A stretch of DNA of 64,000 nt from Escherichia coli O157:H7 (GTDB lineage: Bacteria; Pseudomonadota; Gammaproteobacteria; Enterobacterales; Enterobacteriaceae): NCBI RefSeq assembly GCF_013167455.1, contig NZ_CP038328.1. One strand, given 5' to 3'. Positions 28,001 through 28,219 of the stretch are shown here, piece by piece. Each line of letters starts with the position of its first letter. Positions within the stretch are counted from its first letter, which is position 1. The position numbers and the translations under genes are program-made. The notes below the pieces were generated by a model, which was not told where the DNA came from, searched no databases, and worked only from the letters and a program-made list of their open reading frames with translations.

Positions 28001-28219
28001 TTATGGAAAACGATTGCATTCACAAAATGACGTCCTGTCAGAAGAGAAAAAGTTGACGTTAATCAATTGTTCGAGATGATCAATACCTGTATTCGAAATT
28101 TTAAAATATTGATAAAATAAATGTTTGTTCTCCAACAAATAGCGTGAAAAAATGTGACGTGCCGCATTATTTATCGCTGAAAATGGTTTATTTATAATAA
28201 AATTTGAGAACTTGCTCAT
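28001..28219 (-). CDS. tdcR: Small AT-rich ORF reported as tdc operon activator TdcR (72 aa)
   Basis: MSKFSNFIINKPFSAINNAARHIFSRYLLENKH...NRFP; divergent from tdcA; coding status supported mainly by annotation history. Confidence 0.55.
   Translation of the reverse strand: MSKFSNFIINKPFSAINNAARHIFSRYLLENKHLFYQYFKISNTGIDHLEQLINVNFFSSDRTSFCECNRFP

Follow-up and report, generated by a model that had tools for sequence, protein, structure and literature searches.

The closest described system is tdcR of Escherichia coli K-12 (b3119; NCBIfam NF008507), which is the same gene as the open reading frame (ORF) analyzed here, with no difference in sequence. The ORF lies in a stretch of 64,000 nucleotides from E. 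coli O157:H7 (NZ_CP038328.1), referred to below as the window. In the textbook account tdcR encodes a trans-acting DNA-binding activator of tdcABCDEFG, and conservation of its ORF reflects the function of the protein. Classical genetics is said to describe a trans-acting positive regulator: Schweizer and Datta reportedly observed in 1989 a trans-acting positive effect of tdcR and a product in minicells, and Hagewood et al. reportedly mapped its translation start by mutation in 1994. RefSeq labels the product 'transcriptional activator TdcR', and networks of the EcoCyc/RegulonDB type, like many benchmarks for network inference, list TdcR as a transcription factor that is the sole member of its family. 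Set against this label are an evolutionary signature unlike that of a selected protein and a nonsense allele carried by ~10% of genomes.

Other described systems resemble the locus in different respects. The regions upstream of tdcA in Salmonella and Citrobacter are homologous and similarly AT-rich, with conserved sequence blocks in the same order and at similar distances from tdcA; the aligned frame there contains two to three stop codons and often lacks the ATG, whereas in Escherichia it is open over 72 codons, and no tdcR is annotated in those genera. There is also a likeness to de novo (proto-)genes, since tdcR is restricted to one genus, has a non-coding homologue in sister genera, is short, AT-rich and predicted to be disordered or of low confidence, evolves with an omega close to 1 and segregates loss alleles. 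Finally, the locus shares features with H-NS-bound promoter islands and with silent operons activated by IS5 (bgl, glpFK and flhDC type): the tdcA/tdcR spacer figures among the 'promoter islands' bound by H-NS (PMC3661553), and insertions of IS5 into it have been selected repeatedly in the mouse gut (PMC7518454). In SELEX experiments the spacer is bound by Lrp and by RNA polymerase. The mRNA of tdcR is detectable and regulated, which speaks for a real gene. A literature search returned no paper joining tdcR with ribosome profiling and nothing relevant on tdcR as a pseudogene.

Comparing this locus with its homologues, we arrive at a different emphasis from the textbook account. We consider it probable that tdcR is ancestral cis-regulatory DNA of the tdc operon that carries a young, dispensable and weakly constrained ORF.

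The tdcR frame and its predicted product

The tdcR ORF occupies positions 28001..28219 on the minus strand (72 codons plus stop) and translates from an ATG as MSKFSNF...CNRFP. It is annotated as tdcR by RefSeq and matches the NCBIfam equivalog NF008507 'TdcR' over residues 1-72 of 72 (176.6 bits against a cutoff of 100), a sole family match that is self-defining. The ORF region was found in 5388 of 5426 complete E. coli genomes (99%), and the protein of the window shares 96-99% identity with those of other E. coli alleles. tdcR is an already known, annotated gene and a genuine open reading frame. The activator label, the equivalog match, the presence of the gene in nearly all genomes and a frame that is open across the genus all speak for the textbook account.

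In the list of ORFs of the window, a 118-codon frame with a TTG start (28001-28357) encloses tdcR, and tdcA, the LysR-type activator gene that opens the tdc operon, lies divergently at 28534..29472 on the plus strand; both relationships had been pointed out in an earlier note made from the letters of this DNA, and both were confirmed. tdcA also served as the in-locus control for selection. The longer frame arises from an in-frame extension upstream of tdcR (28220..28357, minus strand), which likewise accounts for an older call of 114 amino acids from an ATG. In alignments the extension is interrupted by 1-nt indels in other Escherichia lineages and is not kept as a frame, with variants of 114, 120 and 92 amino acids in existence. 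It overlaps conserved blocks of the tdc control region, which are described below.

The GC content of tdcR is 0.301 (GC3 0.32), compared with 0.309 for yhaC, 0.358 for yhaB, 0.421 for tdcA, 0.465 for tdcB and 0.501 for the window. Its product contains 10 Phe, 9 Asn, 8 Ser, 7 Ile, 5 Leu and 4 Lys, so that an initial description as Lys/Asn/Phe/Ile-rich holds for Asn, Phe and Ile; Lys, with four residues, is not enriched, and Ser is abundant as well. Nothing else in that description proved inaccurate. The composition had also been likened to that of the neighbouring yhaBC islet, which is numerically right for GC but misleading, because the homologous segment is AT-rich in taxa that lack yhaBC. 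No convincing Shine-Dalgarno sequence precedes the ATG: a GAG is present 9 nt upstream and is lost in other lineages of the alignment. Simple promoter and terminator scans did no better on this DNA than on shuffled sequence.

Judged from its sequence, TdcR offers no support for a role as a DNA-binding factor. It matched no Pfam family and no PDB sequence at E<=10. A word-indexed search of 5.8 billion proteins found no homologues beyond Escherichia and Shigella, and among 1.84 billion representative proteins a profile search retrieved fragments of TdcR only, with no remote homologues. AlphaFold2, supplied with a shallow alignment of 14 close sequences, predicted helices and no confident fold (mean pLDDT 44, pTM 0.23). 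A helix-turn-helix DNA-binding factor was thus not recognizable at the level of either domain or fold, in agreement with what the first reading of the sequence had suggested, and the description of tdcR as an orphan was likewise upheld by its confinement to Escherichia and Shigella and by the outcome of the profile search. The want of a DNA-binding domain, a homologue and a confident fold counts against the textbook account, which we regard as unlikely in view of the evolutionary evidence that follows.

Homologous DNA in other genera and the yhaBC islet

Salmonella, Citrobacter freundii and C. amalonaticus share an arrangement in which garK-rnpB is followed by ~800 bp without a called gene and then by tdcA. 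Aligned by blastn, the tdcR region and the DNA upstream of tdcA in Salmonella and Citrobacter are 68-72% identical over 445-516 nt, and the homology runs from the tdcA start codon to the tdcR stop. Other Enterobacteriaceae have the same operon without the ORF, a further point against the textbook account. The aligned frame is broken in each of these outgroups. In Salmonella the ATG is replaced by AAG, and codons 13, 38 and 52 are stops; C. freundii retains the ATG, but its frame is interrupted at codons 13 and 37; in C. amalonaticus the start reads ATT, with stop codons at 13, 34 and 38. Because the stop at codon 13 is common to Salmonella and both Citrobacter species, a gain of the ORF in Escherichia appears more likely than three independent losses in the outgroups. 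In E. albertii, the locus of which was reached via its TdcA protein, the ATG reads ATA and the frame contains no stop; an in-frame ATG further upstream yields an ORF of 87 codons. Two other sequences picked as possible TdcA of E. albertii or E. fergusonii proved to come from error-ridden E. coli assemblies. Being restricted to Escherichia and having homologous non-coding DNA in outgroups, tdcR fits the definition of an orphan, putatively de novo gene.

According to the explanation we favour, the 219 nt of tdcR would lie within the distal part of an ancestral AT-rich control region upstream of the tdc operon. The Escherichia lineage would have gained an uninterrupted frame and an ATG on this control DNA, and the outcome would be a young orphan product of 72 residues whose amino-acid sequence drifts almost neutrally.

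The low GC content and the position of tdcR had raised the alternative that it is part of a horizontally acquired yhaBC islet and unrelated to tdc regulation. Downstream of tdcR on the same strand lie yhaB (27206..27775, minus strand; the RefSeq call covers 540 nt), which belongs to the dispensable yhaBC islet and not to the tdcR unit, and yhaC (25997..27184, minus strand), an islet gene of 31% GC that matches NF007262. Adjacency and a GC content of 0.30 against 0.31-0.36 for the islet genes are in keeping with that proposal. When one genome was scanned for each species, however, four non-coli lineages emerged (Escherichia sp. MOD1-EC7003, Escherichia sp. E1V33, E. whittamii and a divergent 'E. 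coli', E69), and in all of them tdcB-tdcA-tdcR directly adjoins the rnpB region and garK, and yhaB and yhaC are missing. B2-type strains of E. coli (E371, AH20K059, EcPF14, SE15 and SK1144) keep tdcR as well, and have yhaB and yhaC reduced to remnants of 63-102 bp. The occurrence of tdcR without yhaBC in four lineages and in B2 strains means that the two are inherited independently. Moreover, the tdcR DNA is homologous to DNA upstream of tdcA in genera that never showed yhaBC, and none of the 11 other taxa examined carries these genes. The segment homologous to tdcR has a GC content of 24-32% in 11 of 12 taxa (39% in Pseudescherichia vulneris), equally low in genera without yhaBC, indicating that the control region has long been poor in GC and that this does not mark it as foreign. 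Synteny and homology together rule out membership of tdcR in the islet, and this suggestion of the earlier note is refuted; we give it next to no credence.

Selection on the frame and its natural loss

The comparison set for the sequence of the window comprised seven further E. coli alleles and four further lineages of the genus. Variable sites at codon positions 1/2/3 numbered 18/20/20 in tdcR, against 5/4/86 in tdcA and 8/3/99 in tdcB from the same genomes. Nei-Gojobori dN/dS ratios relative to the window were 0.5-0.77 between lineages for tdcR (dN up to 0.15), compared with 0.01-0.03 for tdcA and tdcB (dN ~0.003); this comparison of the frame across strains, which had been put forward as a check, detected no selection at the protein level. 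With E. albertii added, parsimony assigned 109 substitutions to tdcR, distributed 32/40/37 over the codon positions, counts that use a guessed tree and may be inflated. Synonymous changes made up 30 of the 109, and 25.9 +/- 4.2 were expected when mutations were shuffled over positions (p=0.19). Omega was about 0.8, not different from 1. Among 13 sampled E. coli alleles, tdcR showed 3 synonymous, 13 non-synonymous and 1 nonsense change (tdcA 25/3/0 and tdcB 45/0/0 in the same order). Neither synonymous changes nor third positions are in excess, and tdcR shows no codon-level constraint. The absence of codon periodicity and an omega indistinguishable from neutrality are difficult to reconcile with the textbook account of a protein maintained for its function.

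What speaks for that account is the conservation of TdcR residues 33-55 and 62-72 in most Escherichia lineages. The substitutions in tdcR are indeed clustered, and some stretches of 19-27 nt are fixed at all three codon positions. ORF positions that are invariant within Escherichia are enriched for identity with the outgroups (94 and 72 against 8 and 45 positions; odds ratio 7.3, p=8e-8, three outgroups), and identity across the three outgroups is 47% in the ORF segment, 46% in the tdcA-tdcR intergenic DNA and 24% past the stop. These invariant positions shared with outgroups, together with the similar identities inside and outside the ORF, explain the conservation of tdcR at the level of DNA. 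Read against the alignments, the peptide motifs HLFYQYF... and SFCECNRFP are translations of conserved DNA blocks: the conserved residues lie over nucleotide blocks that Salmonella and Citrobacter keep as well, with their broken frame.

Natural loss of the ORF points in the same direction. A change of codon 25 from TCA to TAA, represented by the allele of strain SE15 and counted by exact matching of a 61-nt probe carrying that allele, was present in 558 of 5363 complete E. coli genomes (10.4%). PGAP flags an 'internal stop' in tdcR of SE15 and SK1144, and both strains have intact tdcA and tdcB. A nonsense pseudogene in ~10% of complete E. coli genomes implies that tdcR is dispensable in nature, and the persistence of intact tdcA and tdcB beside it argues once more against an activator protein of the textbook kind. 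Other lesions of tdcR include a frameshift allele with a 1-nt deletion and a deletion mediated by IS1. In one cluster of assemblies the contigs all break inside codon 33 of tdcR, probably reflecting an insertion sequence.

The frame has nevertheless stayed open. None of six Escherichia lineages has a stop in it, whereas the other five frames carry 4-8 stops each. In simulations that redistribute the observed substitutions and score the cases in which no lineage gains a stop, openness in six lineages had a P of 0.012 when any position could be hit, 0.044 with variable positions only, and 0.006 with the same positions and a random target base. With five lineages, leaving out E. albertii, P was 0.05-0.13, which is not significant. 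The result for six lineages points, marginally, to some selection on the frame and argues to that degree against dismissing the ORF as accidental. The early impression of a weak coding status and a weak regulator role is accordingly borne out in most respects, by the missing third-position excess, the dN/dS of 0.5-0.8, the nonsense allele in 558 of 5363 genomes and the lack of a domain, homologue or fold; where coding status is concerned it has to be qualified in part, as the frame is open in six lineages beyond chance (p 0.006-0.044).

These data bear on a starker proposal, namely that tdcR is an accidental frame that was never functionally expressed, and that the reported trans-activation was due to multicopy plasmids titrating H-NS or another factor. 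All of the evidence for neutral evolution is compatible with it, as are the binding of H-NS to the region, the poor match to a Shine-Dalgarno sequence (the GAG 9 nt upstream of the ATG) and the non-significant openness with five lineages. The significance gained with E. albertii (P 0.006-0.044) tells against it, and so does the way in which E. albertii has exchanged its lost ATG for an upstream in-frame ATG with an 87-aa ORF. The start reportedly mapped by mutation (Hagewood et al. 1994) and the product reportedly seen in minicells (Schweizer & Datta 1989) would also be hard to accommodate. On balance we hold an accidental frame to be quite improbable.

The combination of an open frame and a freely changing peptide could also be read in another way. 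tdcR might have been born de novo in the Escherichia ancestor out of the distal control DNA of tdc, with selection acting on the open frame and not on the peptide, making it a translated cis-regulatory element that tunes the tdc promoter in cis and not a DNA-binding protein. Divergent transcription coupled to translation across this AT-rich, H-NS-bound DNA might, for example, oppose silencing by Rho and H-NS or act through supercoiling coupling. To this scheme we attach only a small probability, and we continue to favour control DNA with a weakly constrained ORF upon it.

Conserved blocks of the tdc control region

Multiple alignments across 12 taxa delimited a series of conserved blocks, which also occur upstream of tdcA in Trabulsiella, Klebsiella aerogenes, Raoultella and Pseudescherichia. 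As they are kept in K. aerogenes, Raoultella and Pseudescherichia despite different upstream neighbours, the blocks travel with the operon. Their conservation in taxa without the ORF, and their movement with the operon, are what is expected of cis-regulatory DNA. The possibility, raised at the outset, that the region acts as a cis element is supported by these observations, the conserved positions being those common to the ORF-less outgroups.

Closest to tdcA is a CRP site, TGTGAGTGGTCGCACA (28455..28470, plus strand), which we take to be the CRP site of the tdc promoter known from the Datta-lab literature; the block surrounding it is nearly invariant in 12 of 12 taxa. Further from tdcA, and all described on the minus strand, follow a block recognized by its conservation in the alignment, CCTGATTTTTGTCAAAAAA (28347..28365), and the block GGGGATAACCATATTTTATGGCGATAAC (28313..28340), conserved in the 12 taxa. 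The latter contains the palindrome CCATA-TTT-TATGG of the T-N11-A type and is a candidate box for the LysR-type protein TdcA. The block CCATATTTCAAGCAATTA (28256..28273) resembles the IHF consensus WATCAANNNNTTR and may be an IHF site. Next, the block GTTAAATTTAATG (28217..28229) includes the ATG of tdcR and is conserved even where that ATG is lost, as AAG in Salmonella, ATT in C. amalonaticus and ATA in E. albertii.

The series continues within the ORF. CGTCACATTTTTT (28147..28159, minus strand) contains a CRP-type half-site, TCACA, within tdcR codons 21-25 and is kept in the outgroups without an ORF. Two invariant nucleotide blocks were defined over five lineages (E. coli, clade I, E. ruysiae-like, E. 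marmotae-like and E. whittamii): one at 28099..28125 (minus strand; ORF nt 95-121), with all three codon positions fixed and divergence in E. albertii at its 3' end, and one at 28056..28074 (minus strand; ORF nt 146-164), which has diverged in E. albertii. The block GTCATTTTGTGAATGCAATCGTTTTCC (28005..28031, minus strand) corresponds to tdcR codons 63-71 (SFCECNRF) and resembles a site of the CRP/FNR family; at the homologous position K. aerogenes and Raoultella read TTGATTAAAATCAA, the FNR consensus. Beyond the ORF, 28-54 nt past the tdcR stop, lies a distal CRP-like palindrome, AGCATTTTGTATTGAGGATCACAAAAC (27947..27973, minus strand), whose core TTTGTG-N8-CACA is nearly invariant in 12 of 12 taxa. 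Relative to TGTGA-N6-TCACA the palindrome has two mismatches in the window and one in other Escherichia, and a search of this strict CRP pattern at <=1 mismatch recovered the proximal site only. The assignments of blocks to CRP/FNR-type regulators, TdcA and IHF were made by resemblance and should be regarded as putative. A structured non-coding RNA was considered as another reading of the tdcR region and rejected: an Rfam scan reported only rnpB (25401-25777) and no RNA family over tdcR, and RNAalifold gave -7.2 kcal/mol with a covariation term of -0.38, which does not support a conserved RNA structure.

Assembled in this way, the tdc control region would extend ~590 bp upstream of tdcA and comprise a CRP site, a LysR-box-like palindrome, an IHF-like block and CRP/FNR-type sites within and past tdcR. 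It would be common to Salmonella, Citrobacter, Trabulsiella, K. aerogenes and Raoultella. We propose that the blocks form a nucleoprotein, H-NS-bound architecture that sets the activity of the tdc promoter, in which case any activator effect of the TdcR peptide would be accessory and not that of a classical DNA-binding factor.

If the conservation at tdcR is that of cis-regulatory DNA, the E. coli regulatory network contains a mislabelled node, the control region of tdc spans ~590 bp with distal CRP/FNR-type sites that had not been studied before, and the pandemic B2 lineage with its nonsense allele is a natural knockout. The practical consequences are modest, as the tdc operon itself is unaffected and the understanding of its function unchanged. 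The locus would be a clean and experimentally tractable example of an ORF emerging over functional regulatory DNA. Given almost free evolution of the protein over conserved control DNA, the activator label of TdcR merits a direct test.

The IS5 insertions selected in the spacer may relate to the same architecture. Conversion from K-12 coordinates would place the IS5 site at approximately position 28447 of the window, just upstream of the CRP site. An insertion at this point, if the mapping is right, would uncouple the distal region, including tdcR, from the core promoter. Compared with operons of the bgl, glpFK and flhDC type, IS5 insertions at tdc are known as selected, and activation through removal of the distal region is putative.

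Constraint on tdcB and lesions in tdcR

Among the sampled E. coli strains the TdcB protein (WP_000548347.1; tdcB, window 29571-30560) is identical throughout, and the segregating changes in its gene comprise 45 synonymous and no non-synonymous substitutions, with dS reaching 0.12. Purifying selection on tdcB is thus unusually strict, beside a tdcR (28001-28219, minus strand) that drifts freely. In strain YPE10, a deletion and rearrangement flanked by two IS1 copies (locus L007, 3222-5296) has eliminated tdcA together with the 5' portion (half) of tdcR and the greater part of tdcB-tdcD; what remains is part of a gene for a PLP-dependent enzyme, followed by tdcE. 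Separate assemblies (L022, 3001-3225; L023, 1249-1473) stop at the identical base within codon 33 of tdcR, after ...GAGAACAAACA, with a final base unlike the wild type; the corresponding protein is P0040, whose cluster has 490 member sequences. This shared contig end probably reflects an insertion sequence that interrupts tdcR in one lineage or another.

One further contig (L001, CAUHML010000178.1), labelled as a metagenome-assembled genome of an 'uncultured Bacteroides sp.', is 96-99% identical to the E. coli tdcB-tdcA-tdcR-yhaB-yhaC segment and represents binning contamination.

Candidate regulatory sites upstream of tdcA

A tdcR promoter, TTTAAA-16-TATAAA, has been proposed in the literature from genomic SELEX and maps to 28406-28379 on the minus strand (region 28371-28406). 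Transcripts starting there would have a 5' UTR some 150 nt long that runs across the LysR-box-like block. In the multiple alignment both hexamers show poor conservation in clade I and the outgroups.

A CRP-like near-palindrome, TTTGTG-N8-CACAAA (27947-27973), lies farther upstream of tdcA, some 505 bp beyond the known CRP site of tdc (28455-28470). Its core is kept in all 12 of the Enterobacteriaceae examined, including some whose tdc neighbourhood differs, and to our knowledge no function has been described for it. In the alignment, the position homologous to window 28005-28031 lies some 520 nt upstream of tdcA in K. aerogenes and Raoultella (L024, L025) and there matches the FNR consensus perfectly (TTGATTAAAATCAA), whereas Escherichia, Salmonella and Citrobacter read TGTGA-N6-TCG(T/A)T at this position. 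This difference suggests that a candidate site of the CRP/FNR family has changed type between genera.

The yhaBC islet and the adjoining rnpB spacer

The presence of the yhaBC islet (25997-27775) is polymorphic among the Escherichia genomes compared. It is whole in the sampled A/B1/E-type strains, shrunk in B2-type strains to pseudogene remnants of 63-102 bp (L014-L017 and L032, at about locus positions 1900-2066), and absent from four other Escherichia lineages. Because a yhaB-like remnant persists in E. albertii (124 nt, 75% identity; L029, 3170-3292), the islet may be old within the genus and have been deleted repeatedly. Family and domain profile searches with yhaC (25997-27184) returned pentapeptide-repeat and ParB-like matches below threshold only, and in at least one strain, STEC1575, PGAP flags the gene as frameshifted.

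The spacer between rnpB and yhaC measures 219 bp in the window (25778-25996) as against 613 bp in YPE10 (L007, 605-1217). Repeated weak Rfam matches across window 25721-25931 are consistent with variable repeats of the REP/BIME type downstream of rnpB.
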